A DNA stretch of 32,000 nt from Trichlorobacter lovleyi SZ (lineage in GTDB: Bacteria > Desulfobacterota > Desulfuromonadia > Geobacterales > Pseudopelobacteraceae), in the NCBI RefSeq assembly GCF_000020385.1, contig NC_010814.1, positions 3,180,001 to 3,212,000 on the forward strand. Direction: 5' to 3'. Below, one piece after another: positions 2,102-31,496 of the stretch; within the stretch, counting starts at the first letter, position 1, and every line of letters begins with the position of its first letter. The position numbers and the translations under genes are program-made. A model generated the notes under the pieces. It was not told the DNA's origin, ran no database searches, and worked only from the letters and a program-made list of their open reading frames with translations.

Positions 2102-2127
2102 CAATGCCATCACAAGGAGGATTCGCT

Positions 2128-2811: not shown

Positions 2812-2841
2812 CCTGCCACATCAAAATCGTACCGTAACAGA

Positions 2842-4285: not shown

Positions 4286-4502
4286 GTTTTATTGACACCT
4301 TGTCTGGGTAGTTCTTAATCGTTGAAGGTACCCGTCCCTGGAAGGTTGTAGCACAGAGGTATTACACCTGAACATTAAGCAGCATTCGGATATTTTTAAG
4401 AAGTTTTTTAAAGGCGAAGGACAGCTTTACTATTACGGAAAGCAATTCCTGACATACCTCATCAGAGCATGGAAGCTTTGACCCAGAAAAGGAGAGACAG
4501 AG

Positions 4503-5545: not shown

Positions 5546-5597
5546 CCGGGCAGGCGGGTGCTAACTGCTTATTCGGGCTACACGGTGGAGAGACGGT

Positions 5598-6050: not shown

Positions 6051-6153
6051 ATCTGTGGACCAGATCCGCTCAGATAAATTTCAGCCTGTTACAGCTGTCG
6101 TGGTGAGTCAAGCAGCACGCAAAAGTGAGTTAAACCCAGATTGCCGGTTCATA

Positions 6154-6247
6154 CACCTGCCCGGCGCACTCCAGGCACCGGAACTCCCGTGAAACAACAG
6201 GGATGCAAGCATCAGAGGCCCGCGAACCATCGCGGGCCTTTCACGTT
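6154..6247 (+). repeat. copy B of the ~92-nt structured repeat
   Basis: Aligns to 3072..3163 and carries the same terminator-like hairpin at 6216..6239. Confidence 0.6.
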
Positions 6248-6494
6248 TTCACCCCTTAATATGACACCATGAACAAACTTCGCCAGAGCTCTATCCGGCA
6301 TATTGCAGAGTACATATTTCCTGCTAAACTTTAATACATGTAACGTCCCGATGATTCTTGAATGAAACATTCCCATGCATGGCCACCTCCTGGCCCTGCC
6401 ATCCATTTGTCAGGGTTGGTACCTACTATCAGTGACTTGGTCAATATGGAACTCTCGTTTATCAATATTCAGCTAGACACCAATAAGGTCTTTA

Positions 6495-6884
6495 TTGTAT
6501 GCAAACAACCAAGCACCTGACAGACAAGGCTCCCCCGTGAACAATGACCGTGCTGAAAAACATCAACTGCTGCGCCAGCGGGCCGAACAACTTTTGGCAA
6601 CTGATCCGGGGCGGTTCAGGACACCGGAACAGGCCGATCTTGTTGGGCTGTTGCATGAACTGGCGGTCTTTCAAGCTGAACTCGAGATGCAGAATGAGGA
6701 TCTACTGCTTGCCAATCAGCAGCTTGAAGAGACCAGGCAACAGTATGCGCGTTTGTATGAACAGGCACCGGTTGGATATCTCAGACTGAACGAGCAGGGA
6801 ATTATTCTTCGTCATAATCAGACCTTCATTGAAATGATCCATTCGGATCAGAACATGCTGGTTAACAAACCGTTGGCAACCTTA
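6495..6884 (+). pseudogene. 5' fragment (130 codons) of a multi-domain PAS sensor gene interrupted by an IS element
   Basis: The N-terminal coiled-coil/PAS start (LHELAVFQAELEMQNEDLL...YEQAPVGYLRLN) is paralogous to the N-terminus of the 11373 gene. The native reading frame is broken at 6884/6885. The start codon is uncertain (TTG 6495 or GTG 6537). Confidence 0.8.
6876..6884. repeat. target-site duplication, left copy (GCAACCTTA)
   Basis: The identical 9-mer directly flanks the other IS end at 8125..8133. Confidence 0.8.
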
Positions 6885-8124: not shown

Positions 8125-8133
8125 GCAACCTTA
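8125..8133. repeat. target-site duplication, right copy (GCAACCTTA)
   Basis: Identical to 6876..6884. Confidence 0.8.
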
Positions 8134-10434
8134 TTAACAGCTGAAGATCGTAACATCTTCTATGCTCGTTTCAGCGCACTGTTTAAAAATCCTGTTGGTA
8201 AAAATATTGAACTGTGCTTCTCCCTGCCCAGAGGAAAAAAACTTGTCACCAGCCTGACTGCCCGCAGGGATCTGCACTGCATCACCGCCGACGCAGTACA
8301 ACCGACACTTCTCGTCATCATTTCCGACATCAGCGAGATCTGCCGCACCCGCCATGCTTTGGAACAGGCCCGTCTGGAGGCGGAAGGCACCTGTAACCGG
8401 CAAACCCAGCTGTTGGTTGAGACTCGAAAACTCAGTCGTCTTTACCTGCTGCTTTCACGCATAAATCAGCTGATTATACAGCACCCTCAGCAACAGGAGC
8501 TGTACAGGGAGGTCTGTGATATAGCTGTACTGGATGGCGGAATTGCTACTGCGTGGATAGGATCTATAGAGAAAACAGGAGTAATCACTCCGTTGGCAAG
8601 TTGCGGAATGACACTTGAACAACTGGACTGTCTGGAAATCAACAGTTACGGCACCTTCTTGCAGGAGAGCAAAACCTTTATAAACAACAATCTGCTTGCA
8701 GAACCGGATCTCACCCGCTGGCAAAGTGCTGTGGTGAACTGTGGATTCCAGTCAGTGGCCACCTTGCCGATCAAGGCCAGAAAAGGCCTTACAGGCTGTT
8801 TTGTCCTCTATGCAAAGGAACCTGACTTCTTTGATGATGCAGAAATCAGGCTGTTGGAGGAGATAAGCCGCAACATTGGTCACGCCCTTGATGTGGCTGA
8901 AATGGACCGTGAACAGGAGCAGGCCAGAGAACAGTTGAGCTATCTTGCCCGCCATGATCCGTTGACCGGTTTAAACAACCGGCTGATGTTTTCCAGCCAC
9001 TTGGCCATGGCCTTGGAAAGAGCCGCCAGGCAGGGCACCCTGTTGGCCCTGTTGCTGTTGGACCTTGACCGATTCAAGGATGTAAACGACAGTTTTGGCC
9101 ATGCCGCCGGAGATGAGTTGCTTGTACAGATGGCAAAACGGATTACCGGCCGGCTGCGCATGTCCATCAATCAGGTTGAAGACATCAGGGACTATGTCAA
9201 CTATATCCTGAGCAACCCCGCAGAATTGACCACGCTCTACCGGGAACTTCTGATCGGAGTAACCAGTTTCTTCCGCGATCAGGAGGCCTTTGATTTTCTG
9301 GCCAGCAATGTCCTGCCAGATCTGTTTCGTAATGCCACCAGCCGTGAGATCCGCTTCTGGGTTGCAGCCTGCTCCACCGGTGAAGAGGCCTATTCGTTAG
9401 CCATTCTGGCCCGTGAATGCCTTGAAAAGCTGGGCAGTTCCCATGACATCAAGATCTTTGCCACCGATATTGATCGTGACGCCATTCACTATGCCGCTGC
9501 CGGCAGCTACCCGGAAAGCATTGCCGCAGACCTGTCACCGCGAATCCTGTCAAAATACTTTCACAAGCGGGATGACAACTTTCAGATAGCCCGCACTATT
9601 CGTGAAATGGTGGTCTTTGCCCAACACAACCTGATCAAGGACCCGCCCTTTACCAATATCGATCTGATCAGCTGCCGTAACGTACTGATCTATTTCCAGC
9701 CTATTCTGCAACGCAAGGTGTTCGAGTTCTGTAATTTTTCACTGGCGGCCAACGGTGCACTCTTCCTGGGCAGCAGCGAATCAACCGGTGAAATGGCCTC
9801 CTATTTTGATGTGCTTGACCAAAAACTGAAGATTTTCCGTTCCAAAGGCAGAATGAAGCCCCTTTCAGATACCCACCTGCCTAGTGTCTCCGACACCCGT
9901 TTCCATGAAATGAAGGGGCAGTTTGCCATTGCACGCCGGGCTGTGCGGGCAACGGAAGAAGAACGGGTCATGGAGCGTTTCATTGAGGCTGCCAGCTCAG
10001 ATTATATCCCCCTGGCCCTGGTGGTTAACGAACAGCTTGAGGTCCAACATATCTTTGGAGATGCTACCGGATACCTCAAGCTCCCATCCGGCAAAGTGGT
10101 CAACGACATCTCGAAAATGGCGGTCAAGGAACTGGCAATCCCTCTGGCCACGGGTATTCAGAAAGTATTCCGGCAACATCAGGAACTGCGTTTCTCAAAC
10201 ATCCGGGTCAGCCAACCGGATGGAAACCGTCTGATTGATATGCGGATTAAACTGTTACCGGCAAAAAAAGAGCAGGATCATCTGATTGCAGTATTCATTA
10301 CTGAGACCAGGAAAAATGATTCAAACGATAGCGGCCAGCCGGTACAGACCTATGACCTCTCAAAAGAGGCAGAAGACAGGATGCGGGACCTGGAACATGA
10401 ACTGCAGTTTACCCGTGAAAATCTGCAGGCAACC

Positions 10435-10560
10435 ATTGAAGAGCTGGAAACATCCAATGAAGAGCTACAGGCTACCAACGAAGAACTGTTGGCCAGTAAT
10501 GAAGAACTGCAATCCACCAACGAGGAGCTGCAATCCACCAACGAAGAACTTTTTACGGTC
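10435..10560 (+). repeat. six tandem 21-bp (heptad) repeats encoding [42 protein letters not shown]
   Basis: Direct reading shows two adjacent units that are near-identical at the DNA level. This is the coiled-coil linker typical of CheR-PAS sensor proteins. Confidence 0.8.
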
Positions 10561-11372
10561 AACGCTGAATATCAGAGCAAAATCATTGAACTGACTGAAT
10601 TGCACAACGACCTTGACAACCTGCTCTCTGCAACCCAGATAGGTAACCTGCTGCTTGACGAAAACATGGAGGTACGCCGCTTTTCTAAACGGGTCTGTGA
10701 TATCTTCAAGTTGCTGGATAGCGACATTGGCCGTCCGATCACCCACATCACCCATCACCTTTTAAATTGCGACCCGATTGCATTGATCAGGGATGTCCAG
10801 ATCACCTCAAGGCCTCAGGAGCTTGAAGTGCAGACCCAGGATGGCCGTTGGCGTCTGATGCGAATAGTCCCCTACGCCATCGGCCCCAAGACCTTTTCCG
10901 GCACGGTGGTCTCTTTTGTTGACATCAACCTGCTCAAACTGGCTCAAGAAAGCGCCTGTGAGATGCAGCAGCTGTTTGCCGACGTGGTCCATTCATCTCC
11001 GGCCCTGGTCTGGCTGGCCGACACCAGCAAAGGATGTATCTGGTTTAACGAGCCCTGGCTGGCCTTTACCGGACGAACCATGGAACAGGAGCTGGGTAAC
11101 GGCTGGGCAGCCGGAGTCCACCCCGATGATTTTGAACGTTGCCTGAAAATCTATACAGAGTCCTTTGATCAGATGAAACCGTTTTCAATGGAATACCGTC
11201 TGCGTCGCCATGACGGTGTCTACCGTTTGCTGCTGGATGAAGGGCGGCCCCGCTTCAGGCAGGACGGCAGCTTTGCCGGCTATATCGGTGCCTGTCTGGA
11301 TATTTCCGACAAAACCTGCCCGTTTGACCAACCTAACTGCATGATGCACGCAGTCCGCTCTGGAGCCACGGC

Positions 11373-12332
11373 ATGACATCACGAAACGAAAATAATTTCA
11401 TGCAATTACGAAAAAGGGCCGAGACGCTCCTCAACGCAGCTCCTCAGCCGGCCTGCGACCTGGCGCCTGACGAAGTTAAGGCCTTGGTGCATGATCTTTC
11501 AGTGCACCAGATAGAGCTTGAGCTGCAAAATGATGAACTCCTGCGCGCCCAGCAGCTGATAGAGAAATCGCGGGATGAACTGGCCCGGCTCTACCATCAG
11601 GCTCCGGTTGGCTATCTGAGCCTGAACCGGATCGGCATTATTGAACGTTGCAATCAGACCTTTAGTCGCATGGTGGGTAAAACCTGTGAAAAACTGGCTG
11701 GCAAGCCTCTGGCAGACCTGCTGGAAGGGATGGATCGCGATATCTTTCTGGGAAGATTCCGATCTTTTTTCAACCACCCGGCAGATAAATTCATTGACCT
11801 GTATTTCCCTGCACGGGGAGAATCGAACGGATTCCATGGACGGATAACCGCCAGCCTTGAAACCAATCCGGCAGATCAGCCGGATGATCGGGAGCCAAGC
11901 CTGCTGGTGATTGTTCAGGATATCTCCGAACAGAGAATAGAATCGCTGATCCGCATCAAAATTGAACAGACACTGAAAAACCACGACCTTTTTGTCTCGA
12001 CGCTACTGGAAACCATTCCGATCCCGCTTTTCTACAAAGACACACAGTGTCGCTACCTGGGCTGCAATGAGGCTTTTAAAGCGTTTACCGGGCTTACGGA
12101 ATCCCAACTGATCGGTAAGACCGTGTTTGATATTTCTCCACCTGAGATTGCGGTTCAGTACGATGAAAAGGACCGCCACTGCTGGAGCACCCAGGCAGCC
12201 AATCCTATGAATGGAAAGTCAGGACTGTTGACGGAACGTTCAGAACCGTTGTCTTTAATAAAGCCACTTTTAATGACATTGACGGGCAATTGGCAGGTAT
12301 TGTCGGTACCATACAGGATATTACCGATCTGA
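11373..12332 (+). CDS. 5' portion of a frameshifted PAS/PAS hybrid sensor histidine kinase gene
   Basis: ATGA overlap with the upstream stop. The N-terminus is paralogous to the 6495 gene. The second PAS domain loses consensus after ...VQYDEKDR, and the tail of the ORF (HCWSTQAANPMNGKSGLLTERSEP...) is out-of-frame read-through. Confidence 0.75.
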   Translation: MTSRNENNFMQLRKRAETLLNAAPQPACDLAPDEVKALVHDLSVHQIELELQNDELLRAQQLIEKSRDELARLYHQAPVGYLSLNRIGIIERCNQTFSRMVGKTCEKLAGKPLADLLEGMDRDIFLGRFRSFFNHPADKFIDLYFPARGESNGFHGRITASLETNPADQPDDREPSLLVIVQDISEQRIESLIRIKIEQTLKNHDLFVSTLLETIPIPLFYKDTQCRYLGCNEAFKAFTGLTESQLIGKTVFDISPPEIAVQYDEKDRHCWSTQAANPMNGKSGLLTERSEPLSLIKPLLMTLTGNWQVLSVPYRILPI

Positions 12333-13531
12333 AGGATTTACAACTGACGCTGAAACAGGCAAAGGATGTGGCAGAGCAGGCCAACCGTGCCAAAAGCGAA
12401 TTTTTAGCAAACATGAGCCATGAACTACGCACGCCTATGAACGGCGTGGTCGGCATGGCAGAATTACTTTCGATGTCTGAACTTTCTGAAGAACAACAGG
12501 ATTTTGTTGCGGCAATCAAACAAAGCGGACAGAATCTGGTCAAGATCATCGGCGATATTCTTGATCTGGCAAAAATAGAAGCAGACAAGGTAGAACTGGA
12601 ACACTCCACCTTCTCCCTCCGCTCAACAATTGACCTGGTACTGAGCCTGCTCCATCCCCAGGCTCAGGCCAAAGGCCTGATTATTTTCAACCGCGTGGAG
12701 CCGGAACTGCCGGATTTATTCCGGGGAGATGCAGGTCGACTGAACCAGATTTTACTGAATCTGCTGGGCAATGCCGTCAAGTTCACCTCACAGGGCAGTA
12801 TCAGTATAACGGTGCTACCGGGCCAGGTTACAGACAACCGCCTGACGCTCTGTTTCAGTATTAGCGATACCGGCGTCGGCATCCCCCATACCAGCCTGCA
12901 CAAACTCTTTATTCCTTTCAGCCAGGTAGACAGCTCAACCACCCGTAAATTCGGCGGCACCGGCTTGGGGTTAGCCATCTCGAAACAACTCGTAGAACTG
13001 ATGGGGGGGACTATCAGCGTTGAAAGCGTCGAAGGCAGCGGCTCCACCTTTTTTGTCAGACTACCGCTGGAACTGGTCGTAGATACAGATACAGCCTGCC
13101 AACCCCTGCCCTCATCTCTGGCAATAGCTACCAACGGGCATAATCCGGCTGACTACTGCATTCTCGTGGTTGAAGACAACGAGCTGAATCTCAAAGTACT
13201 GGAACTTATGCTGACCAAGCTGGGCTACCGGACAAAAACTGCCACAGATGGACTAAAAGCCCTGGAGTTATTAAAAACAGATGCTATTAATCTGGTACTG
13301 ATGGACTGCAGTATGCCGGTACTCGACGGCTATCTGACCACCGCAAAAATCAGAAAACCGGAAACCGGCACAAGGAAACCTGACATTCCCATTATCGCCA
13401 TAACCGCACGGGCCATGTACGGAGACAAGGAAAAGTGCATACAGACTGGAATGAATGACTATCTGGCGAAACCGATCAACTGCACCGAGCTTGCCGATAA
13501 AATCAATCTTTGGCTGAACCGCGCTTCCTGA
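12290..13531 (+). CDS. 3' portion of the same gene: end of PAS, HisKA, HATPase_c and receiver domain
   Basis: H-box SHELRTPMNGVVG, N-box LLNLLGNAVKFT, G-boxes DTGVGI and GGTGLGLAIS, and a receiver domain (LVVEDNELN...LMDCSMPVLDG...KP). The frame is open upstream to 12167, where it encodes LLEHPGSQSYEWKVRTVDGTFRTVVFNKATFNDIDGQLAG, the missing PAS strands. Confidence 0.85.
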   Translation: MAGIVGTIQDITDLKDLQLTLKQAKDVAEQANRAKSEFLANMSHELRTPMNGVVGMAELLSMSELSEEQQDFVAAIKQSGQNLVKIIGDILDLAKIEADKVELEHSTFSLRSTIDLVLSLLHPQAQAKGLIIFNRVEPELPDLFRGDAGRLNQILLNLLGNAVKFTSQGSISITVLPGQVTDNRLTLCFSISDTGVGIPHTSLHKLFIPFSQVDSSTTRKFGGTGLGLAISKQLVELMGGTISVESVEGSGSTFFVRLPLELVVDTDTACQPLPSSLAIATNGHNPADYCILVVEDNELNLKVLELMLTKLGYRTKTATDGLKALELLKTDAINLVLMDCSMPVLDGYLTTAKIRKPETGTRKPDIPIIAITARAMYGDKEKCIQTGMNDYLAKPINCTELADKINLWLNRAS

Positions 13532-14660
13532 CACAAACGGTGTGCATCCGCTCCAGGGCCTGCTGCAGCAGGCTCCGGGGACAACCGAAATTGAGCCTGA
13601 CAAATCCCGGTGCTCCGAACGGCGCCCCATCCGACAGCCCCACCCCGGCCTGCTCGAACAGGCCGGCCGGATCAGCCACCCCCAGCCCTTGTGCATCGAT
13701 CCAGGCCAGATAGGTCGCCTCCACCGGCCAGGTCTTCAGGCCGGGCATGGCCTGAATTGCCTCCAGCACCAGATCACGATTCTGCCGCAGATACTCGAGC
13801 AGAGCCTGACGCCAGGGCTCGCCATCACGATAGGCAGCCAGGGTGGCTGTATAGCCCAGCAGATTGACATGGGGCACGATCCCGGCCATGACGTCTCTAA
13901 AGGACCGCCTCAGCTGCTTGTCGGGAATAACGGCAAAGGAGCAGCCCAGACCGGGGATATTCCAGGTCTTGCTGGGGGCCAGCAGGGTAATGGTACGCCT
14001 GGCCAGTTCCGGTTTAAGGCAGGCGAAAGGAATATGCGTTTTGCCACTATCCAGCACCAGCCCGGCATGGATCTCGTCGGAACAGACCATCAGATCATGA
14101 CGCTCAACCAGATCAGCCAGCGCCAGCTGCTCCTCCCGGCTCCAGACCCTGCCCACCGGATTGTGGGGGCTGCAGAGCAGCAGCAGCCTGGTGCGGGGGG
14201 TAATGGCCTGCTCCAACACCTCCAGATCCATCTCCCAGCGTCCCTGCTGTTCAACCAGCGGCACACTGATCAGCTCCCGCCCGGCCAGTCCCGGCGCAGT
14301 TAAAAACGGCGGGTAGACAGGTGTAAAGGTAGCAACGGCATCCCCGGGAGCCCCCACGGCCCGGCAGCTCACATTCAGGCCGCAGACCAGCCCCGGCAAC
14401 CAGACCAGCCACTTCGACTGCACCTGCCAGCCGTATTCTTGCCGCAGCATTGCCAGTACAACAGCAACCAACTCCTCTGGCGGCCTGCTGTAGCCGAAAA
14501 CACCATGTTCAACCCGTTGCTGCAGAGCCTCCAGCACTGCCGGCGGTGAACGGAAATCCATGTCCGCCACCCAGAGCGGAATAATATCCTGCCCGGCATA
14601 GCGATCCCATTTCTCACTACCGGTATTACGACGGTCAATGACCGTATCAAAATCAAACAT
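13503..14660 (-). CDS. MalY/PatB-type PLP-dependent C-S lyase, candidate ovothiol sulfoxide lyase OvoB
   Basis: Motifs MFDFDTVIDRRNTGSEKW, SPHNPVGRVW, SDEIH and the PLP-lysine APSKTWN. Its ATG overlaps the ovoA stop (TGATG), so I prefer the start at 14660 over the listed 14675. Confidence 0.8.
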   Translation of the reverse strand: MFDFDTVIDRRNTGSEKWDRYAGQDIIPLWVADMDFRSPPAVLEALQQRVEHGVFGYSRPPEELVAVVLAMLRQEYGWQVQSKWLVWLPGLVCGLNVSCRAVGAPGDAVATFTPVYPPFLTAPGLAGRELISVPLVEQQGRWEMDLEVLEQAITPRTRLLLLCSPHNPVGRVWSREEQLALADLVERHDLMVCSDEIHAGLVLDSGKTHIPFACLKPELARRTITLLAPSKTWNIPGLGCSFAVIPDKQLRRSFRDVMAGIVPHVNLLGYTATLAAYRDGEPWRQALLEYLRQNRDLVLEAIQAMPGLKTWPVEATYLAWIDAQGLGVADPAGLFEQAGVGLSDGAPFGAPGFVRLNFGCPRSLLQQALERMHTVCVRKRGSAKD

Positions 14661-16383: not shown

Positions 16384-16415
16384 CCCGCTTAAACAGTTTG
16401 ACCTGTTCAAGCGGG
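16384..16415. terminator. strong hairpin at the Dam-gene end of the remnant
   Basis: CCCGCTTAAACAG-TTTGAC-CTGTTCAAGCGGG forms 13 bp with one G-U pair. A T-run (TTTTGATTTT) follows on the plus strand only, and the Dam stop codon lies within that run. Confidence 0.45.
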
Positions 16416-16423
16416 TTTTGATT

Positions 16424-17188
16424 TTAGTTGTTTGTGATCAACAATTCCTTCCTCGCTTTGCCCTTACTGGCCCCACCGACAGTATAATTTATATCGACGG
16501 ACTTAATCTGGAAGTCAGAGAACACATCTCTGATGTCTGGATGATCATTAATGGTCAACAAAGCCTTTCCCTGGAGTGTTTTCAGTTGTTCGGCAAGGGC
16601 CAAGTATTGGTCAAACTCAAAAGGCACTCCGTAGCCCTCTGTTTGCCAATATGGAGGGTCCAGCAAAAAGAATGAATGCGGCCGGTCATACTTTGCGATG
16701 CATCGTTCCCAAGGGAGATGTTCGACCGTTACCCTGGACAGTCTGATATGGGCCTGGCTGAGATCTTCTTCCAGACGGAGCAGATTCAGCCGAGGAGGTG
16801 ATGTCGTTGCGGTACCGAACGTCCGGCCATCAACCTTGCCGCCAAACGATAACTTTTGAAGGTAGAAAAATCTAGCTGCTCTTTGTATATCCGTTAATGT
16901 TTCTGGCGGCGTATCTTGTAGCCACTCATAAATTTTACGGCTCGTAATTGCCCACTTGAATTGTCGAACAAATTCATCAAGGTGATGTTGAATGACCCGG
17001 TAGAGTGATACCAGATCATGGTTGATGTCGTTTACCACTTCAACCTTTGACATCGGCTTTGAAAATAGTATTGCAGCAGCACCGGCAAACGGTTCGACAT
17101 AGCAGGTATGTTGGGGGATCATTGGGATTATGTGGCGGGCCAGGCGACGCTTGCCGCCTATCCAGGGGATAATAGGGCTGTGATTCAT
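16424..17188 (-). CDS. dam: DNA adenine methyltransferase (Dam / D12 class N6-MTase), orphan
   Basis: N-terminal IPWIGGKRRLA, FAGAAA SAM-binding motif and DPPY catalytic motif (FFLLDPPYW). No adjacent restriction gene. Confidence 0.85.
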   Translation of the reverse strand: MNHSPIIPWIGGKRRLARHIIPMIPQHTCYVEPFAGAAAILFSKPMSKVEVVNDINHDLVSLYRVIQHHLDEFVRQFKWAITSRKIYEWLQDTPPETLTDIQRAARFFYLQKLSFGGKVDGRTFGTATTSPPRLNLLRLEEDLSQAHIRLSRVTVEHLPWERCIAKYDRPHSFFLLDPPYWQTEGYGVPFEFDQYLALAEQLKTLQGKALLTINDHPDIRDVFSDFQIKSVDINYTVGGASKGKARKELLITNN

Positions 17189-17330
17189 TGTGAGCCTCCT
17201 TGTATTTTCAAGGTTGTTTTGATAGGCTCCCCTTGCTCTGATCGGAGCGGGGCAGCCTTGGTTGGCTCACTGTGACGGCAGTGGGTCGGCGGCCTGATCA
17301 TGCTCTAACATGGTCAGGCCGCTGCCTCTT

Positions 17331-17723
17331 CTATTGTGTTACCTCCAGTGTTGTAACTATCCCTATGCTTTGTAATGCTTTTTCAATCCTGGACCGCAGT
17401 GGTGTCATTGTTGTGGGTGGTGCATGTTCGTAGCGCACCAGCTGGTCATATTTGATGTTGTTTGCCCGGCACCATTCGTGGACCGTTGTGCCTTTTGCCT
17501 TTATTGCCGTTGATAGTTGCAGCCGGTCGGATTGTTTTATATTTGGATCAGCGGCTGGTTTCCAGGCCGGCTTGATCTTTTTTACCCGGCCCAATGCCTT
17601 CAGCCCACAGTGTGGGCTATTTTCATTACAATCTGGCACTAATTTGCACGCCAAACAAGCGGCCCTGCTCTCGGGTGGATCAACGTAAACGAATGAGTCG
17701 GTGTCGGCATACCTTGCGGACAT
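17331..17723 (-). CDS. hypothetical phage protein with a Cys-rich N-terminus and HTH-like C-terminus
   Basis: The ATG at 17723 follows the tail-gene stop by 1 nt and has a GGAGGTG RBS. It contains CLACKLVPDCNENSPHC. The listed longer start at 17798 would overlap the tail gene. Confidence 0.5.
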   Translation of the reverse strand: MSARYADTDSFVYVDPPESRAACLACKLVPDCNENSPHCGLKALGRVKKIKPAWKPAADPNIKQSDRLQLSTAIKAKGTTVHEWCRANNIKYDQLVRYEHAPPTTMTPLRSRIEKALQSIGIVTTLEVTQ

Positions 17724-22905: not shown

Positions 22906-23427
22906 ATCGGGTACAGCGACCCGCAACAGATCTTTTCACTGCTGCCCCTGTTTGAGTCTGGCGGGGTGGATTTCCTGGTGCTGCATCCCCGCACCGTGCT
23001 GCAGGAATACAAAGGATTGGCCGACCACGGCATTACAACCCGGGTGGTGCAGGAAACCGGCCTGCCGGTGATTGCCAACGGAGATGTACGGACAGTAGAG
23101 GATGGGCTGCGGGTGCTGGAACAGACCAAGGCGGCCGGTCTGATGCTGGGCAGGGGTGCCATTGCCGACCCGCTGTTGTTCCAGCGGCTACGGGCAGGCA
23201 GGCCTGATCAGCCGGAGCGGGCTGCACGGGCTGCCATGCTGCGCCACTACCTGGCCGGACTGCTGGAACGCTATCAGGGGATATTCTGCGGAGAACAGCA
23301 GATTCTGGGCAAGGTCAAGAGCGTGTTTGCCACCATGGATGATCCTGATTTTGCAAAACAGATCAAAGGGCTTAAAAAGGCCCGCACGATCAGGCAGTTT
23401 GCAGACCTAGTAGTCCAGCTGACCTGA
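22906..23427 (+). pseudogene. dus: 3' fragment of a tRNA-dihydrouridine synthase (dus) gene
   Basis: GYSDPQQIFSLLPLFESGGVDFLVLHPRT...VIANGDV...GLMLGRGAIADPLLF is the C-terminal half of the Dus TIM barrel plus its helical domain. The N-terminal FMN and catalytic half is missing. The ORF-track prefix (22741..22905) is antisense to the phage gene. Confidence 0.75.
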
Positions 23428-24942
23428 CGCCTCCTCCGTAATCGGCGCCCGGTTCCTGACAACATGCACCTTGATTCCGGCCCGGGTCTCCACCGGGCAG
23501 ACGTTTTCGCAGATGCCGCAACCGTTACAGATCTCCTCCACCAGATACGGCTCCTTCACGGTTTTCATCACCCCATCCAGCCCCATCACCCGCACCTCGC
23601 GGGAACGGATCGCCTTGTCCGGTATCGGGCAATGTTCCTCGCAGACAATACAGTCGGTTTTACGCGCAAAAGGCAGACAGTGGTTTTTATCAAAGACCGC
23701 CTTGCCGATCACCTGCCGTTTCTTCTCCTCAACAGCCAGATTGGGAATGGCGCCGGTGGGGCAGACCTGACCGCAGAGGGTGCAGTTATATTCGCAGTAG
23801 CCTAGACGGGGGATCAGCAGTGGAGTGTAGATACCATCGACTCCAGCCTGCCAGGCAGCCGGATACAGAGCGTTCTTGAGGCAGACCTTCATACATTCGC
23901 CGCAGCGGACACATTTCTTCAGAAAATCGCCCTCATCCCGTACGCCGGGCGGACGCAAAAGACCGGCCTCCTTTTCAGGCGACCGGAAACGGGTCGGCAC
24001 CGCCAGCAGCAGTCCCCCTGCCAGTCCCCCCAGCAGCAGCCTGCGCTGCGGCAGAACCGGTTCGGACAGCTGCAGCGGCCAAGAGGGCCGGAAGCTGATC
24101 CGCTGGTTGGGACAGCCCTGCTCACACTCCATACAGAGGATACACTCCTCCCGGTTCAGGCTTCCCTGATCAAAGGTCGTCGGGCAGAGTTCACGGCACT
24201 GGCCGCAATCGGCACACAGACCCGGTGGAATCCGTTTGAAGGGGGAGAACCGTCCCAGCCAGCCCAGCAGGGTGCCCAGCGGGCAGAGATGACGGCACCA
24301 GGCCCGGGTCTCCAGCCGTTCCAGCAGGATGATCAGCACCAGCAGCAGGGCAGAGGCAAAGGCCAGGGGATAGAGGGTCTCACGAAACGGCAGCAGGTAG
24401 TTCTTCAGCAGGCCATAGGCTGGCGCCAGACTGTCGCGCTGTTCACCGATCAGCCCGTACAGGCGTACCCAGCCTTCACGGGCGCTCAACCCCAGCAGGG
24501 GGTAGAAAAAGAAGGTCAGCCCCCGCAGCAGGATAGCGATCGGATCAAGCAGCCCGGCCAGATTCAGGTTGAACAGCGAGGCAGACAACAGCGGCAGCAG
24601 CAACCAGTATTTCAGGTTGCCAGCCAGCCAGAGGACCGGCCTGGTGGAGCGTTGTTTGGGCGTCAGCAGATCCAGCAGGGTTCCCAACGGACAGATCCAA
24701 CCGCAAAAAAAACGCCCCAGCAGCAGGGTGGCCAGTGTCATCAAAACCGCAGGCAGCAGCAGCCAGGTCCAGGACTTGGCTGCCAGCAGGTAGCTGAACA
24801 GCACCAGCGGGTCAGCCCGGAAGAAGGAGTTGACGGCGGCATTGATCTGGTCATGGCCACGATACTCGGTCTGCAGGAACAGCAACAGAAACAGTGCCAG
24901 GAACAGCAGCTGGCTTATGCGGGCCGTGGTCGGTTTCACCAA
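23407..24942 (-). CDS. membrane-anchored polyferredoxin (NapH/MauN-like N-terminal TM domain plus multiple 4Fe-4S motifs)
   Basis: Several TM helices with CGWICP and CRHLCP motifs, then repeated CxxCxxCxxxCP clusters (CADCGQCRELCP, CVRCGECMKVC, CTLCGQVCP, CNGCGICENVCP). Confidence 0.8.
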   Translation of the reverse strand: MVKPTTARISQLLFLALFLLLFLQTEYRGHDQINAAVNSFFRADPLVLFSYLLAAKSWTWLLLPAVLMTLATLLLGRFFCGWICPLGTLLDLLTPKQRSTRPVLWLAGNLKYWLLLPLLSASLFNLNLAGLLDPIAILLRGLTFFFYPLLGLSAREGWVRLYGLIGEQRDSLAPAYGLLKNYLLPFRETLYPLAFASALLLVLIILLERLETRAWCRHLCPLGTLLGWLGRFSPFKRIPPGLCADCGQCRELCPTTFDQGSLNREECILCMECEQGCPNQRISFRPSWPLQLSEPVLPQRRLLLGGLAGGLLLAVPTRFRSPEKEAGLLRPPGVRDEGDFLKKCVRCGECMKVCLKNALYPAAWQAGVDGIYTPLLIPRLGYCEYNCTLCGQVCPTGAIPNLAVEEKKRQVIGKAVFDKNHCLPFARKTDCIVCEEHCPIPDKAIRSREVRVMGLDGVMKTVKEPYLVEEICNGCGICENVCPVETRAGIKVHVVRNRAPITEEASGQLDY

Positions 24943-25827
24943 TCAGGCCTTAACCACCTTGATCCGGTCCAGATTCATCTGGCCCAGACCGCGTTTATGG
25001 GCCGCAACCGTCACCGCAATATCAGCCGGTTTCAGACCGAACAGGGTGGTGGCATAGGCGTCGGCGGCCACGATATCGGCTGAGGCGATCACCTTGTTCA
25101 GCACCTTGACATCGGCAAGGTTCCCCCCTTGGGGGCCGTGGGCCGTCAGGATTCTGGTGGCATCAATGATGGTCAGGTGGCTGCGCAGGTGACTGTTCAC
25201 ATCGGCCAGGGCCACCGCAAGGTTGCGATGGGTAAAGCCGCGGTTGCCCCCCATCACCCCCATGATGTTTTTCAGCCCCAGGGTCAGCCTGGACAGGCCG
25301 TGGTGCTTGGCCACCGGCAGGTTGATAAAGACATTGGCAGCCAGCGCCTCATCATACAGCTCCCACTCCTTCAGGAACTGCCCCTTCAAGGCGGTCATCC
25401 TGAACCGCTCCGGTTCAATCTGTTTGCACTCCACCCCTTTAAGCCCCTTCAGCGCCTTTTCAATACCGCTGTTCACATAGCAACGCCGCGGATCATTGCA
25501 GGTATGGTCAAAGACCTTGACCTTCCTGGCGCCGGCTGCCAGACACTCCTCCACCACGGCCCGCACCACCAGCGGGTGGCTGTTGGCGGCAAACTCCGGC
25601 GAGCGATCCCAGCCCATGTTGGGCTTGACCACCACCAGATCCCCGGCTTTGACATAGCGTTTCATACCACCCACCGCGTTGATAGCCCGACGGGTAATGG
25701 CCGGGTAGTCAGTCCCTTCGGCCACCGCCACCAGTGACATCTCCGTTGCAGCCAGCAGTTCCTGCACCAGCACCGGTGCCAGTACCGTTGCTGCCCCTGC
25801 GCTCTTGATAAAGGTACGGCGATCCAT
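24943..25827 (-). CDS. Tat-exported DUF362 domain protein
   Basis: Twin-arginine signal MDRRTFIKSAGAA. GGAGG lies 5 nt before the ATG at 25827 (the listed GTG at 25833 sits inside the RBS). The stop directly abuts the start of the polyferredoxin gene. Confidence 0.75.
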   Translation of the reverse strand: MDRRTFIKSAGAATVLAPVLVQELLAATEMSLVAVAEGTDYPAITRRAINAVGGMKRYVKAGDLVVVKPNMGWDRSPEFAANSHPLVVRAVVEECLAAGARKVKVFDHTCNDPRRCYVNSGIEKALKGLKGVECKQIEPERFRMTALKGQFLKEWELYDEALAANVFINLPVAKHHGLSRLTLGLKNIMGVMGGNRGFTHRNLAVALADVNSHLRSHLTIIDATRILTAHGPQGGNLADVKVLNKVIASADIVAADAYATTLFGLKPADIAVTVAAHKRGLGQMNLDRIKVVKA

Positions 25828-25881
25828 GGTCACCTCCGCTAATCGGGAATTGATTCCAGTCTACCCCTGTTACCGATGAAA

Positions 25882-27384
25882 TCAAGGTACAAACAAGGCG
25901 GCATGGTTTGAGGTAAACTGCGGTGGGTCACGCCGGATGATCGCCGCGATTTCAGGGGGACGGCTGAACTCCTGGCGCAGGAAACGCCGCACCTCTCCCC
26001 TGCCCCAACCTTTGGGATGTTTAAAACCTGTGTAGAGCGATAAATCACCTTCGTAAAACAGCTCTGTCTCGTAGTCAGCCACCTCATCACCAAACAGCGG
26101 CATGTTAAAAACAGCCAGATTAAGGAAGGTAATCGCGGCATGGTGCTGCTGCACAAAGGCCAGGGTGCGCCGGGCGGCAGCTTCATCCTCAGCCGGGGTA
26201 CCGAACAGCAGATAGCCATAGACCGCAATCCCAGCTGCCCGCAGGTTCTCCAGAATCAGTCCGGCCATCTCCAGCTCAATCCCCTTGTGCAGACGGTCCA
26301 GCACCGCCTGATCACCGGACTCAATCCCCAGCTTCAGCATCACGCAGCCCGATTGTTTCAAGGCATAACAGAATTGCGGATCAGTCAACTGCCGTTCAAA
26401 CCTGACAAAGCCGTACCAAGGTGCTCCTGACGGCTGCTTGATCAGCCCCTGCAGCAGGGCCGGACTCAGGGCATTATCCAGCAGGTGCAGCACTGTTGGC
26501 TGATACTGTTGCACCAGCTGCTGCAGTTCAGCCAGCACCTGCGGAATCGGCAGCGGCAGGAAACGGCTTCCCTCGGCCCGCTCCGGGCAGAAGGAACAAC
26601 GGTTCCACCAACAACCGGAGGCGGTGCTGTAGGGCAGGATCAGGCCGGGGCTCAGGTACTGTTGCAACGGTAATTGCTGATAGTCAGGCAGGCTGTTGCA
26701 ATACGACGTATTATGTCCCATCAGAGCCAGCAGCGGCCCTTCCCCAGGCCCGGCAATCAGGTGATCGATCAGGTCGCCAAACGGGTTCTGCCAATCCGGC
26801 CGCGACAGCCAGGAGGTTACCAGCCCGCCGCCAACCACGATCCTGATCTGCGGATACTGCTGCCGGATCAGACCGATCAGGCTGAAGCTGCAGAGGGCCT
26901 GACTAAGAAAGTTGAGTGAGATACCGACGGTGGTCATGCCATCCAGCAGCTGTGGCAGGCGTTGTTGAAAGAAGGGAAAGAACGGGTTCAGCTCAGGCCT
27001 GGCAGCGACCTGCAGCAGATCCGTGCTGCGCACCGGCGTCAGATCGCTCTGGCGATAATCAGCCAGCCCGACCTCTGCCTGCAGCGGCTTGGCCGCCATC
27101 AGCAGCAGGTGGTTCAGATCATTGACCGCCGTGGCATAACGGCCGGGGTTGGCATAGGTCCGGCGGTCCCGCAGGGCTGCCAGGTGGTTCTGGCGGCTGC
27201 GCCAGGCCCGCCCGGTCCAGGTATCATCTGCCTCTGGCTGCTGCTCCAGCAACCAGAGTTGACCTTCCAGATTGGCATCCCACAGCCTGCAGGGGATGTT
27301 GTTGGCCTGCAGTGCACCCGCCAGCCGGGCGATCCCGGCCGGCGGTTCGCAGGCCTTGGCAATGGGGGGAAAGATCAGTAGCAC
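25882..27384 (-). CDS. B12-binding-domain radical SAM protein with CX4CX2C cluster spacing
   Basis: N-terminal Rossmann-like B12-type domain (LLIFPP...IVVGG). The cluster motif is SGCWWNRCSFCPE (26587..26613). Confidence 0.75.
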   Translation of the reverse strand: MLLIFPPIAKACEPPAGIARLAGALQANNIPCRLWDANLEGQLWLLEQQPEADDTWTGRAWRSRQNHLAALRDRRTYANPGRYATAVNDLNHLLLMAAKPLQAEVGLADYRQSDLTPVRSTDLLQVAARPELNPFFPFFQQRLPQLLDGMTTVGISLNFLSQALCSFSLIGLIRQQYPQIRIVVGGGLVTSWLSRPDWQNPFGDLIDHLIAGPGEGPLLALMGHNTSYCNSLPDYQQLPLQQYLSPGLILPYSTASGCWWNRCSFCPERAEGSRFLPLPIPQVLAELQQLVQQYQPTVLHLLDNALSPALLQGLIKQPSGAPWYGFVRFERQLTDPQFCYALKQSGCVMLKLGIESGDQAVLDRLHKGIELEMAGLILENLRAAGIAVYGYLLFGTPAEDEAAARRTLAFVQQHHAAITFLNLAVFNMPLFGDEVADYETELFYEGDLSLYTGFKHPKGWGRGEVRRFLRQEFSRPPEIAAIIRRDPPQFTSNHAALFVP

Positions 27385-27540
27385 GATGCGGACTTACGGT
27401 TGCGGTCTAAAATCACGGGGACGGCTCCAAAGTTACGGTTATATAACGGGGGAGAGCGCAGCGGCAGGCGCGGATTTGTCGCGACCGACCGTCTGCCGCG
27501 CTTGGTTGGCGGTTACAAAACTCCAAACCGAAAAGATTGC

Positions 27541-28047
27541 TTAGTCGTTTTCTGTCAAATAAAATTTATGATCACGATCTAGAAACACTACATAAAAGGT
27601 ATTTTTATCAAACGTTTCGCCAGTGGCCTGATGCGGAGTGCGGTGATAATCTGTGGGGACAGTAAATCCAACTAACCTGACTTTGGCACAAAGCCTAAAT
27701 CGGCCCCATTGTGCTTGATGTGGTATGTATTTAGGTTCTGTAAACGCTGATCTACCATCAGGGAAAGCCCCATAGGTTTCAAGAACCTTTAGTCCGCCAC
27801 CACCAACCCGCTGATTACGCCAATATTCGAGAGGTTTAGTGGTGTAGTCCTTTAGTTTACTAAGTAGGTCGTGAAGTTGAGCATGTGTCCAATCTTGAAA
27901 ATCTTGACCTGGTTCTTGGTTAGAATCAAAATAGGAAAAATTAAATTTGCTTCGAATTGTCAGATCATTGTCTTTATCATCAAGGCTGGGCTGTTCTGCT
28001 AGACGCCCCATAAACTTAGATTTTCTCGTATTATTATATTGTTTCAT
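27541..28047 (-). CDS. 168-aa protein of unknown family, partner of the AAA ATPase
   Basis: ATGA overlap with the ATPase stop and the same AT-rich composition. I recognise no nuclease, HNH or Toprim motif. The C-terminal pattern WGRFRL..VRLVGF...FYVVFLDRDHKFY is reminiscent of RelE/ParE-fold toxins. Confidence 0.7.
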   Translation of the reverse strand: MKQYNNTRKSKFMGRLAEQPSLDDKDNDLTIRSKFNFSYFDSNQEPGQDFQDWTHAQLHDLLSKLKDYTTKPLEYWRNQRVGGGGLKVLETYGAFPDGRSAFTEPKYIPHQAQWGRFRLCAKVRLVGFTVPTDYHRTPHQATGETFDKNTFYVVFLDRDHKFYLTEND

Positions 28048-29186
28048 AACCTCGGGACTCCACCAATTTTGCCCGATTTATATACAGGCAATAAAGAACG
28101 GTCATTTCTAAGAATATCCCCAGGAATTTCATCAAGCCTGTATCCATAACTTTCATTTTCTTCTTTATTTATAAGTATTGTACGATACTTACTCATTAAA
28201 TCGAGAATTTCTGAATTATGCGTTGTGAAGATAATTTGAGCACCATTAGTGTTGATGGAGTCGTCCATAAAGCATCTCAAAAGTTCTGGTAATATATGTG
28301 GATGCAAAAAAACATCAAATTCATCTAAAATAAGGATGCCTCCTGTCATTAGTACCAGTTTGTATTCAGCCAACTGCCTATACAGTGACTTAGTGCCACT
28401 CGATTGATTGTAATAAGTTAAATATTTTAACTCTCCAGAAACTTCAAATTCGAATATTGGGAAGTAAACATCCTCGTTTTTATCATTTTTGTGAGATGCT
28501 ATCTTGATACTTTTTATATCCTTATCAAATTTTGATATATAAGACTTTACAAAATCAAATATATCATCGTGATTGTGGTAATATTCAGATATTAAGTCTA
28601 CAGATTGCATACTATCACTATCACGCAGTCCTAAAAAATTAACGTTAGATAACATGTAATTGAAGAAAGAATATACTGGTGATATGACACTTATTTCGTA
28701 TTGATTAGCAGTACTAATAATAGAAGCATTAGATCTTAGTTTAACAATTTTAACATCATCAAATTCTTTAATACAAGACAACTTTTCACGATTTCTGTCG
28801 AGAACTTTTGTCATACGGTTTTGTTTACGATGAAGTTTTTCACTTACAACTTCATTTTTTGATGCCTTTAGTTCATACCGGTACTCAATTCCGCTAAAAA
28901 TGAAATCAACAAAAAATTCAGCTGGGTCATCATTATTAAAATATGTCTGTAGATTTATTTGGCTTTCAGGTTTGTATGAAAAGGAATTTTTACAAAAATC
29001 GGACAAAAAGGTTAGAATCTTAAGAGCATTCGTTTTCCCAGAACCATTTGCCCCCTTTACACACATAACATTTGATATTGGTTTCCCATTCGATATGTGT
29101 TCAGGACAGTTTTTGTCCAGCTCAAATGAAATTACAATCCACTCTTTGAATGAACAGAAATTTCTCGCCCCAAATTTAGTTAGCAT
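28044..29186 (-). CDS. ABC-type AAA ATPase (AAA_21/PF13304-like), defence-associated class
   Basis: Walker A GANGSGKTN, signature-like SSGTKSL, Walker B ILILDEFDVFLHP and H-loop FTTHNSE. Purine-rich RBS GAGAGGGGGG. Confidence 0.85.
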   Translation of the reverse strand: MLTKFGARNFCSFKEWIVISFELDKNCPEHISNGKPISNVMCVKGANGSGKTNALKILTFLSDFCKNSFSYKPESQINLQTYFNNDDPAEFFVDFIFSGIEYRYELKASKNEVVSEKLHRKQNRMTKVLDRNREKLSCIKEFDDVKIVKLRSNASIISTANQYEISVISPVYSFFNYMLSNVNFLGLRDSDSMQSVDLISEYYHNHDDIFDFVKSYISKFDKDIKSIKIASHKNDKNEDVYFPIFEFEVSGELKYLTYYNQSSGTKSLYRQLAEYKLVLMTGGILILDEFDVFLHPHILPELLRCFMDDSINTNGAQIIFTTHNSEILDLMSKYRTILINKEENESYGYRLDEIPGDILRNDRSLLPVYKSGKIGGVPRL

Positions 29187-29401
29187 AGTGCCCCCCTCTC
29201 AATAGAGCACACAATAACATAAGCACTTCTAAAAGCAAGCTGCAAACTGGTATTTAAGCGCATATTGCTCAAAAAACACAAATAAGGGTCTCGATAACAT
29301 ATGCCTTATTTGAAATATTGTTGATACTTCGTTCCCTTGATTTTTTTATTCGCCAACGGTCCCCCGGTGACCTGCCCGTTTTGGGGTCTGGTCCACCGGA
29401 T

Positions 29402-29430
29402 GGTTTATCCCCGCTTTGCGGGGATAAACC
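29402..29430. repeat. perfect palindrome GGTTTATCCCCGC-TTT-GCGGGGATAAACC
   Basis: 13-bp arms read directly. Each arm matches the end of the E. coli type I-E CRISPR repeat (GCGGGGATAAACC) as I recall it. Confidence 0.7.
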
Positions 29431-29437
29431 CGTAATT

Positions 29438-29471
29438 GCCCGGTTCACGCGCGCACGGGCGTGAACCGGGC
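29438..29471. repeat. perfect palindrome GCCCGGTTCACGC-GCGCACGG-GCGTGAACCGGGC
   Basis: 13-bp arms read directly, 7 nt from the previous palindrome. Confidence 0.7.
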
Positions 29472-29572
29472 AACACCCCACATGGAACAGTTATTCAGCC
29501 TGTTTTAGGCAAACCTGCTGTCACAGTACCCACTCCAGCAAAGAGGAGCAGAGCCAGAAGAATAATGCGTCA

Positions 29573-29609
29573 CCATGAAAATTCGAACGTGCAATCCGAA
29601 TTTTCATGG
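29573..29609 (-). terminator. hairpin terminator after the 622-aa radical SAM gene
   Basis: CCATGAAAATTCG / CGAATTTTCATGG forms a 13-bp perfect stem with an 11-nt loop, 19 nt past the stop at 29628. A moderately T-rich tail follows on the minus strand. Confidence 0.5.
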
Positions 29610-29627
29610 CAAATGCTCAAATTGACG

Positions 29628-31496
29628 TTACTCCCCCGTCACCATCCCCTCGGCCATGGCAAACTGCAGAAACTCCAGGGCGTCAGCAGCAGGAATCCGC
29701 AACTGCTTGGCAATAACACCGGCGGTCCGGTTGCCATCCAACTCTTCAAGCAGGCGGTAGTAGGGCCTGATCAGCGATTCAGTACAGACCTCGCCGTGGG
29801 CCGGGTAGATGGCGACCCAGGAGCCGGTCTGTTTCAGCTGTTTGCTGATCCAGGCCAGGTCAGGCTCGCCGGAGTCCAGAATATCCAGTATTTCATAGTG
29901 AAACGGCAGCAGGGTCAGGGATGATGCCCGCTCAAGCCGCATCTTCAGCAGGTCCAGCTTGAGCAGAGCCTCGTCATCCGGCGGGATCGGCGGCACCGCC
30001 ATCAACGCCACGCCGTAGGCATAGTGGTAATCCACACAATCCAGGGCAGCAGGCAGCAGTTTCTGGGCCTTACGCTCATCAAACAGACTGGTCAGGAATT
30101 GCCGTTGTAGTTGCCATATTTCAGCATCGTCCAGCTCAGCCTCATCCGGCATACGGCCCATCCGCTGCTGCAACCAGTCGGCAAACCGCTCCAGCAGCTC
30201 CACCGGCTTGAGTTTCAGCCCCCGCGCCACCCCGTTGAACCAGGCCACGGCCTTGCCGCGGGAGTAGAAGATGTCGCTGGCTGAGCCGAGCTGACGCGCC
30301 CTGGCCATATCCACCAGCGGGAATGTTGTTGACTCCAGCAGGGTGTAGGGGGGACCTGGCAGATGCCGCATGCCGATAGCGGCTGCCTTGTGGGCGACCT
30401 TGGTGCCGGGCAGCACCGCCAGCGGAAAGATATCCAGGTGGTTGGGGTAGAGCGACAGGGCAAAGTTGAGCCCTTCACGGAATTTGTCTAAACAATCGTC
30501 CGGCAGGCCGTAGATCAGGTCAAAGCCAAAGGTGGCGCCGGAGTCGTTCAGCAGCATCACCTTGGCAGTGAATTCGTCGCGGTTGAATGTTCTGCCCACC
30601 CCGCCGGCCACGGCCGGATCAGCGCTCTGCAGGCCGATCTGGACTGAGCAGGTCAGTTGCGCAAACAGCTGGGCCTGTTCCTTGTCCAGCAGTTCATGGC
30701 GCACCTCAAAGTGGAAGTGGACATCCGGCGCAGTCTCACGGATCAGGCGCAGCAGGTGCTTGGCCCGTTTTTTGTCGGTGTTGAAGGTGGAATCCAGGGC
30801 AAAGATCTGGGAGGCACCGCGTTCCACCAGATAGGCCAGTTCCTGTTCCATCCGATCCAGCGGATAGCGTCGCACCTTGCGATCTCCCATACCGTCATAG
30901 CAGAACTCGCAGGCGTAGGGACAGCCCCGGGAGAGCTGCCAGACCATGCCGTTTTCAATATGCCGGTCCAGCAGCCCGGCCAGATAGGGAGACGGCAGTA
31001 TGGCAAGGTCTTCGATCTGCGCACGGGGAATCACCTGCAGCTCATCATTCACCAGTTGGGCTGCGCCGGGCAGTCCCTGCAGTGGCGCTCCGGCCAGACA
31101 ACGTTCCAGCAGCTCGGCCGCGGTCAGCTCCCCCTCTCCCACCACCAGCAGGTCAAAGGGGGCCTCGGCCAGCAGGCGGGCCGGGTCAGCGGTTGCCTCA
31201 GGGCCGCCGGCAATCAACAACAGATCGGGAAACTGCTGGCGCAACATCGTAATCAGTTTACAGCACTCTTCACGGTTCCAGACATAGACCGGCAGGCCGA
31301 CGATATCAGGCTGTTGCTCTTTGATAGAGGCCACCAGTTGCTCTAAAGGAGTACCGCAGAAAAACTCGGCGGTGGTGACGGCAACCTTCCCCTGCAGGGC
31401 AGGCGACTGGTCCAGATAGGCCTTGAGAAAGGCAGCGGCAAGCGGCACGGCCTGGGCGGACGGCATGGCATGAAGGGTAACAAGGTGTAAGTTCAT
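29628..31496 (-). CDS. B12-binding-domain radical SAM protein with DUF4080-like C-terminal extension
   Basis: B12-type N-domain (LLIAGGPEAT) and canonical SRGCPYACEFCYDG (CX3CX2C). 622 aa. Confidence 0.8.
   Translation of the reverse strand: MNLHLVTLHAMPSAQAVPLAAAFLKAYLDQSPALQGKVAVTTAEFFCGTPLEQLVASIKEQQPDIVGLPVYVWNREECCKLITMLRQQFPDLLLIAGGPEATADPARLLAEAPFDLLVVGEGELTAAELLERCLAGAPLQGLPGAAQLVNDELQVIPRAQIEDLAILPSPYLAGLLDRHIENGMVWQLSRGCPYACEFCYDGMGDRKVRRYPLDRMEQELAYLVERGASQIFALDSTFNTDKKRAKHLLRLIRETAPDVHFHFEVRHELLDKEQAQLFAQLTCSVQIGLQSADPAVAGGVGRTFNRDEFTAKVMLLNDSGATFGFDLIYGLPDDCLDKFREGLNFALSLYPNHLDIFPLAVLPGTKVAHKAAAIGMRHLPGPPYTLLESTTFPLVDMARARQLGSASDIFYSRGKAVAWFNGVARGLKLKPVELLERFADWLQQRMGRMPDEAELDDAEIWQLQRQFLTSLFDERKAQKLLPAALDCVDYHYAYGVALMAVPPIPPDDEALLKLDLLKMRLERASSLTLLPFHYEILDILDSGEPDLAWISKQLKQTGSWVAIYPAHGEVCTESLIRPYYRLLEELDGNRTAGVIAKQLRIPAADALEFLQFAMAEGMVTGE

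Follow-up and report, generated by a model that had tools for sequence, protein, structure and literature searches.

The 32,000-nucleotide (nt) stretch of the Trichlorobacter lovleyi SZ chromosome analyzed here (NC_010814.1, positions 3,180,001 to 3,212,000; hereafter the window, whose coordinates are used throughout) carries a compact cassette of two genes, both on the minus strand. The first encodes a 380-amino-acid (aa) ABC-type ATPase (28044..29186) with a predicted antitoxin role as neutralizer or sensor, and the second a 168-aa small protein (27541..28047), the effector, which is predicted to be a toxin of the RelE/YoeB fold. Stop and start codons of the two genes overlap in an ATGA on the same strand (28044..28047), as an initial annotation made from the sequence had read. 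In our assessment the cassette is very probably a mobile two-gene module of toxin–antitoxin type, horizontally acquired and belonging to the AarT:AAA family, in which a RelE/YoeB-like effector is paired with an ATPase antitoxin.

The cassette differs sharply in composition from its surroundings. The G+C (GC) content is 31.9% in the ATPase open reading frame (ORF) and 40.0% in the small ORF, compared to a mean of 54.5% (sd 3.8, minimum 47.8) over 1143-nt windows elsewhere in the window. The line counts first used to describe this drop were exact (23 of 60 positions at 28081 and 11 of 60 at 28501, against 39 of 60 at 27001). Based on Pfam, both flanking genes encode B12-binding/radical-SAM proteins: upstream, a 622-aa host protein (29628..31496, minus strand; B12-binding 1.5e-14, Radical_SAM 4.2e-16) and downstream, a 500-aa host protein (25882..27384, minus strand).

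The ATPase and its conserved partner

The 380-aa protein matched AAA_21 in Pfam (8e-55) and phrog_5836 in PHROGs (6e-74). Its best PADLOC model was AbiLi (PDLC02335, 9e-60), followed by AriA, PtuA and other ABC-ATPase sensor models, in agreement with the first description of it as a defense ATPase of the AAA_21 type. The motifs GANGSGKTN, SSGTKSL, ILILDEFD..LHP and TTHN listed in that description were all present. Across 73 ATPase orthologues, the Walker A (KGxNxxGKT), SxGT and Walker B (LxxDExD) motifs and the H-loop His were conserved, together with a clade-specific C-terminal YRLDE..RNDR..GGxP motif; because these nucleotide-binding and C-terminal motifs are kept, the ATPase looks catalytically competent.

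Outside the family, the closest ATPases (30–31% identity) are encoded by Stenotrophomonas phage BUCT709 (L162, 2170–3929) and by a 5.3-kb Photobacterium plasmid (L163, 805–2584). In both, the following gene, in the position of the small gene in the window, encodes an RloB-domain protein of ~170 aa. Since these nearest relatives pair with RloB, the window ATPase is placed by its sequence in the AbiLi/RloA clade, as a member that appears to have exchanged its effector. It is only 25% identical to the AarT-type ATPase of an Acinetobacter plasmid. These comparisons suggest that effectors may have been swapped more than once between ATPase lineages.

For the 168-aa protein, an identical entry exists in T. 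lovleyi and is labeled hypothetical. The protein had no match in Pfam, PADLOC or NCBIfam and a noise-level match only in PHROGs. The proposed PADLOC check thus returned AbiLi for the ATPase and no model for its partner, and by Pfam and PADLOC the partner is, as had been stated, none of the HNH, Toprim/DUF4435, helicase or RloB proteins. An indexed search returned 275 matches to the small protein, and its family comprises 358 clusters at 50% identity. Two subfamilies can be distinguished: a long one that includes the window protein (~167 aa) and a short one (~145 aa), the long one carrying two insertions. They were aligned by hhalign with a probability of 100% (E 1.8e-45) and are therefore treated as one family. 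His160, Asp157 and Trp114 are invariant in the family and Arg116 is kept in most members, while the invariant residues of the long subfamily include W114, R116, R124, D157, H160 and Y163.

The two genes are tightly linked. A scan using one genome per species returned 80 small-gene loci, and in 77 of these a full-length ATPase homologue (36–72% identity) was found immediately upstream on the same strand; in the remaining three the small gene was at a contig edge, so that linkage held at all 77 testable loci. Where both genes had been called, the 4-bp overlap recurred at 42 of 69 homologous loci, which supports the translational coupling proposed for the window pair. We ruled out a conserved third gene by clustering 807 flanking ORFs, of which only the ATPase and small genes were conserved. 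Hosts in the 80-locus scan were spread over Desulfuromonadia, Gamma- and Betaproteobacteria, Campylobacterota, Spirochaetota, Bacteroidota, Cyanobacteria, Fibrobacterota, Gracilibacteria and Clostridia.

The partner of the small protein is not always an ATPase. A tblastn search turned up a homologue (32% identity) in Bacteroides phage BI-TP1; the gene that overlaps it upstream encodes a SocA_Panacea antitoxin (Pfam 3.5e-20), and a Phocaeicola family member is likewise preceded by Panacea. Among family loci in IMG/VR (n = 47), the upstream gene encoded Panacea in 38 cases and an AAA_21 ATPase in eight, with one locus at a contig edge. Because relatives pair with a Panacea antitoxin in place of the ATPase, the 168-aa protein is best read as a toxin.

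Family identity with the AarT:AAA pair

A pair of this kind has been published. In NetFlax (Ernits et al., PNAS 2023), AarT(D3):AAA(D29) of Acinetobacter guerrae, with antitoxin–toxin gene order, was validated as a toxin–antitoxin pair in Escherichia coli (PMC10440598). AarT (WP_152878172.1) was without an HHpred match and had an mRNA-interferase fold; it was toxic in E. coli, where incorporation of 35S-Met went down and that of 3H-uridine went up, and it was neutralized by the AAA ATPase (PMC10440598). Panacea is a further partner of NetFlax node D3, one instance being Acidobacterium capsulatum.

We deduced the terminal peptides of AarT and AAA from the cloning primers in NetFlax Dataset S2, including VLS24, VLS26 and VLS27. 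AAA starts with MLVNFS and ends with IKGTD*, followed by a 1-nt spacer, while AarT starts with MAAKRQS and ends with PKKHT*. The ATPase of an Acinetobacter plasmid (L081) begins MLVNFSC, the small-protein family member P0248 begins MSVAKRQN and a KKHT C-terminus was found in 15 members. Because the terminal peptides match and the pattern of Panacea or ATPase partners is common to both, AarT appears to be a member of the short subfamily of the window protein's family. The AarT:AAA toxin–antitoxin pair having been published in 2023, the window pair is not a new system but a new, divergent member of a known family. The initial annotation had called the pair uncharacterized and had named a clean match to an existing system as the result that would overturn this; the pair does map onto the named AarT(D3):AAA(D29) module (PMC10440598), and the label has to be dropped.

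The published experiments also bear on which of the two proteins is the toxin. Pfam labels AAA_21 a ‘putative AbiEii toxin’ and the small gene comes second, as is the case with some antitoxins, which would fit an arrangement with the ATPase as toxic effector and the small protein as its regulator or antitoxin. However, Panacea, a dedicated antitoxin domain, takes the upstream position of the ATPase in relatives, and in the NetFlax experiments toxicity came from AarT and neutralization from the AAA protein (PMC10440598). Reversed roles are thus highly improbable and largely refuted.

Predicted fold of the small protein

The AlphaFold2 (AF2) model of the window protein had a predicted local distance difference test (pLDDT) score of 89 and a predicted template modeling (pTM) score of 0.80. 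In Foldseek, its top match was YoeB/ParE 6n90_B, which was not significant (E 0.64), and a search of BFVD returned nothing. A clearer result came from the AF2 model of P0293, a member of the short subfamily (pLDDT 88.5), for which RelE/ParE-superfamily toxins were the top 26 matches in the Protein Data Bank (PDB) and 42 of the top 46. The best was Sa2YoeB from Staphylococcus aureus (7v6w_F; E 0.01, probability 1.00, target-normalized template modeling (TM) score 0.64), followed by HP0894, YafQ, archaeal RelE, RelK, HigB and ParE. The BECR fold consists of an N-terminal strand, two helices and an antiparallel sheet; this order of secondary-structure elements fits the models, and the fold match itself comes from the relative. 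In an alignment by eye, the C-terminal His160 and Arg116 on the preceding strand resemble YoeB His83 and Arg65 by position and may correspond to them. Separately, profile-search matches in the PDB to a pentapeptide-repeat protein and a D-Ala-D-Ala ligase were short and were rejected as spurious.

Toxins of this fold do not all act on RNA. ParE structures were among the Foldseek matches (6n90, 6xrw, 5cw7) and fold alone cannot separate RelE from ParE, so a gyrase poison similar to ParE, or some other toxin that is not an RNase, has to be considered. In the match list, however, YoeB, RelE, YafQ and HigB ranked at the top and ParE lower, and the C-terminal His is invariant, as in YoeB, YafQ and HigB. 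In addition, reduced 35S-Met together with increased 3H-uridine incorporation, as reported for AarT, is a signature of translation inhibition (PMC10440598). We therefore regard a non-RNase toxin as improbable and favor a RelE/YoeB-like RNase.

Mobile carriers, neighbors and the question of addiction

In 5.6-kb RepM plasmids of Acinetobacter baumannii and 4.7- to 4.9-kb ColE1-type plasmids of Klebsiella, Enterobacter, Salmonella and E. coli, the main cargo consists of the short-subfamily toxin and its ATPase. In A. baumannii p1_005133 (L081, 5602 bp) and in plasmids from Klebsiella and Salmonella (L100, L101), for example, an ‘ATP-binding protein’ and a 145-aa ‘hypothetical protein’ are practically the sole accessory genes; these are AarT-family pairs that are not annotated as such. 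On pSBP2_mcr4 of Shewanella baltica, an mcr-4 conjugative plasmid (L083, 891–7983), the pair is situated between three integrase genes or fragments and adjoins a retron Ec67-type reverse transcriptase/endonuclease; this region looks like a small defense islet.

The Panacea-paired branch is mobile in another way. In Phocaeicola and gut metagenome contigs (L094–L099, ~1150–4441), Panacea, an AarT-like toxin, an IS1595-family transposase and three small ORFs form one unit, which in Phocaeicola is inserted at differing chromosomal sites. The contig collection has the Phocaeicola toxin sequence indexed in 3668 of its blocks, and this toxin is therefore very common in gut metagenomes.

Elsewhere the neighbors of the pair are heterogeneous, a minority of them being integrases, MADS, Dpd, AbiE or extra AAA_21 genes and many of them housekeeping genes. 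The closest relative of the cassette (L001, Geobacter sp.; 72% and 68% identity) was considered as a source of shared context, but none of the flanking genes of the window were found there. Exact-protein look-ups recovered the cassette from T. lovleyi-type contigs, always at the site it occupies in the window and nowhere else.

Several observations weigh against our interpretation. Hidden Markov model and profile searches against PDB sequences found no RelE relative, and hhalign of the family profile with E. coli YoeB gave nothing. The Foldseek matches of P0293 are marginal (E 0.01–0.1, with target-normalized TM-scores of 0.5–0.64), and the decisive result rests on this relative, whose identity to the window protein is ~34%. 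The family has no conserved acidic or basic residue corresponding in position to YoeB Glu46. Regarding AarT, its family identity is based on terminal peptides and context and not on a full alignment, and toxicity, translation block and neutralization were shown only for the A. guerrae pair. Finally, two observations concern phage defense: the A. guerrae pair did not protect E. coli against BASEL coliphages (PMC10440598), and across 108 flanking genes the immediate neighbors were mostly ordinary, with defense genes a minority. Of the co-occurrence with defense islands that the initial annotation had proposed to look for, this minority of neighbors is what was seen, most being ordinary genes.

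The last two observations would also fit a purely selfish addiction module, which stabilizes plasmids, prophages or islands by post-segregational killing and has no role in phage defense, as would the pair's place as principal accessory cargo on ColE1-type and RepM plasmids of 4.7–5.6 kb. On the other side, the AbiL, RloAB and PARIS sensors belong to the same clade as the window ATPase, whose nearest non-family relatives pair with RloB; the pair is carried by prophages and in some loci is found beside retron, MADS, Dpd or AbiE genes; the T. lovleyi site holds PADLOC defense candidates in other strains; and a large, stable ATPase would be an odd choice of labile antitoxin. On balance we consider pure addiction rather unlikely, and addiction and defense are not mutually exclusive.

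A strain-variable insertion site

The site occupied by the cassette is variable among close relatives, which were retrieved from metagenomes using the downstream radical-SAM protein as query; orthologues of the 622-aa gene (76–96% identity) flank the site in other strains. In one locus (L136), only 14 nt separate the two radical-SAM orthologues, which supports the view that the cassette splits them. In two others (L132 and L102, the latter with 95% and 94% aa identity), there are ~390 nt with a 133-aa membrane ORF, and L103 has the same cassette as the window. The remaining loci have different cargo: an S-methyltransferase, a cupin and a DUF4365 protein (L105); an AAA_14/DUF4143 protein that matches the PADLOC candidate PDC-S01 (1.8e-82; L107 and L111), with an additional coiled-coil membrane protein in L107; and TPR, LRV/HEAT or unknown proteins (L113, L112 and L106). 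The foreign inserts (L105, L106, L107, L111, L112 and L113) have GC contents of 42–55% compared to 59–64% in the flanks.

When nine related loci were compared with the window by blastn, upstream homology ended between 29641 and 29442 and downstream homology resumed between 27472 and 27383. These borders delimit the cassette-specific DNA to approximately 27473..29441, a segment with a GC content of 36.5% and without counterpart in relatives sharing both flanks. The adjacent segment on the minus strand (29442..29627) is homologous in L113, L107, L111 and L106, all of which have different inserts, and forms a hotspot border common to strains with other cargo. Because close relatives have a 14-nt gap or other cargo, we consider the gap between the radical-SAM genes (27385–29627) a strain-variable insertion hotspot. 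The cassette is horizontally acquired, as had been proposed: the drop in GC is real, and the site is empty or otherwise filled in close relatives. Cargo has likely been exchanged by homologous recombination through the conserved flanks.

The ATPase gene is preceded by a non-coding leader (29187..29441, minus strand) that holds a hairpin with a perfect 13-bp stem (29402–29430), seen in cassette-bearing loci only. A palindrome with 18-nt arms (29436–29473, inverted repeat I2) straddles the boundary at 29441/29442, and the hotspot border holds a second hairpin with a perfect 13-bp stem (29573–29609, inverted repeat I10) after the upstream radical-SAM gene. A scan for sigma-70 promoters and terminators gave none that was convincing (6 promoter-like sites compared to 5.9 expected). 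Likewise, no convincing target-site duplications or terminal repeats were found around the cassette, and no integrase, tRNA or Rfam element was found within the window. A 109-nt stretch (29427–29535) is 79% identical to a spot between two cargo genes of L107 and may hint at a repeated element of small size.

The radical-SAM genes belong to a larger unit. After the 500-aa gene, the window encodes a DUF362 protein and a membrane protein with multiple 4Fe-4S ferredoxin domains (23407–25833). These genes are co-directional and conserved with the 500-aa gene in related contigs, so that what the cassette interrupts is a redox operon longer than the radical-SAM pair. Farther away, the window at 2800–13600 and 16400–17600 includes a long stretch with a GC content of 45–53%, below the 55–64% found elsewhere, and the AT skew departs sharply (−0.44) at 17201–17600; further acquired DNA may be present in this part of the window.

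Proposed mechanism

The 168-aa effector would be a small RelE/YoeB-like (BECR) toxin that most likely halts translation by cutting RNA, and the ATPase, made from the translationally coupled gene upstream, would keep it inactive. By analogy with AriA and AriB of PARIS (PMC13064643), an oligomeric ATPase complex probably sequesters the toxin. The ATPase would release the toxin on sensing a trigger (loss of the element, for example, or a phage protein), and the freed toxin would cut mRNA on the ribosome, with growth arrest as the outcome and abortive infection and/or post-segregational killing as the consequence. We infer the RNase chemistry, the sequestration and release and the anti-phage function of the pair from relatives and analogous systems. 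Phage defense is a plausible hypothesis given the ATPase clade, the carriage by prophages and plasmids and the hotspot context. The more specific proposal, that the pair is an anti-phage sensor of the PARIS type in which the ATPase cages a ribosome-dependent RelE-like RNase and releases it upon binding a phage protein, is possible, and we put it forward tentatively. If true, it would be the first BECR effector guarded by an ABC ATPase with a demonstrated defense function, it would represent a system missing from PADLOC v2, where the small partner has no model, and it would make the radical-SAM site an integrase-free defense hotspot in Trichlorobacter and Geobacter.

Significance and comparison with known systems

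No new kind of system is revealed by this analysis. It does provide a function-level annotation for a family labeled only ‘hypothetical’ that extends over many phyla, phages of gut Bacteroidota and small clinical plasmids. One RelE-like toxin family appears to be guarded interchangeably by Panacea antitoxins or AbiLi-type ATPases, and the same ATPase clade takes either RloB or an AarT-family toxin, which would amount to swapping of effectors and guards between toxin–antitoxin and defense systems. The analysis also reveals a hotspot of strain-variable insertions in an organohalide-respiring Trichlorobacter. What is truly new here is modest in scale: the breadth of the family and its two subfamilies, the exchange of RloB for AarT within one ATPase clade and the hotspot between the radical-SAM genes.

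Several known systems have related ATPases. For Septu, PtuA models match the window ATPase only weakly (1e-12) and no HNH protein (PtuB) is present. PARIS likewise combines an ABC ATPase with a toxic effector that is held inactive and serves as the model for the sequester-and-release logic (PMC13064643). However, AriB is a TOPRIM tRNase with DUF4435, which is found neither in the window partner nor in its neighbors, and the match of the window ATPase to the AriA model (PDLC02980, 2e-43) extends over generic AAA_21 positions. AbiL and RloAB share the two-gene architecture with the ATPase first, and AbiLi is the best model of the window ATPase, but the window partner is not AbiLii/RloB (TOPRIM/OLD-like), since PADLOC, Pfam and NCBIfam all returned nothing for it and the models of its relatives have a RelE-like fold.

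Other comparisons concern the toxin. In PanA-PanT, the same toxin family is paired with Panacea-domain antitoxins in Bacteroidota and their phages, while in the window the antitoxin position is taken by the ATPase, with no Panacea (DUF4065). The ptuXYZ system couples a PtuA-like ATPase with a YoeB-like domain (Gerdes 2025, PMC11980606) but comprises three genes and includes a DUF262 nuclease together with a PIN'-YoeB fusion, unlike the two-gene window pair. The BECR toxins YoeB, YafQ and HigB resemble the window family in the predicted fold of its relative and in the conserved C-terminal His, whereas the family is without sequence-level membership in any Pfam BECR family and has an N-terminal extension of ~50–80 residues.

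The closest system is AarT:AAA itself. As in the window pair, the ATPase gene comes first and is tightly coupled to the second gene, an AAA_21-type ATPase is combined with a small orphan toxin without an HHpred or Pfam match, the toxin has an mRNA-interferase-like fold, as is predicted for the relative of the window protein, and Panacea is the alternative partner. The window pair differs by its longer toxin subfamily (~167 compared to ~145 aa, with two insertions), by an ATPase only 25% identical to that of the Acinetobacter plasmid and by its location on the chromosome of a Desulfuromonadia genome.

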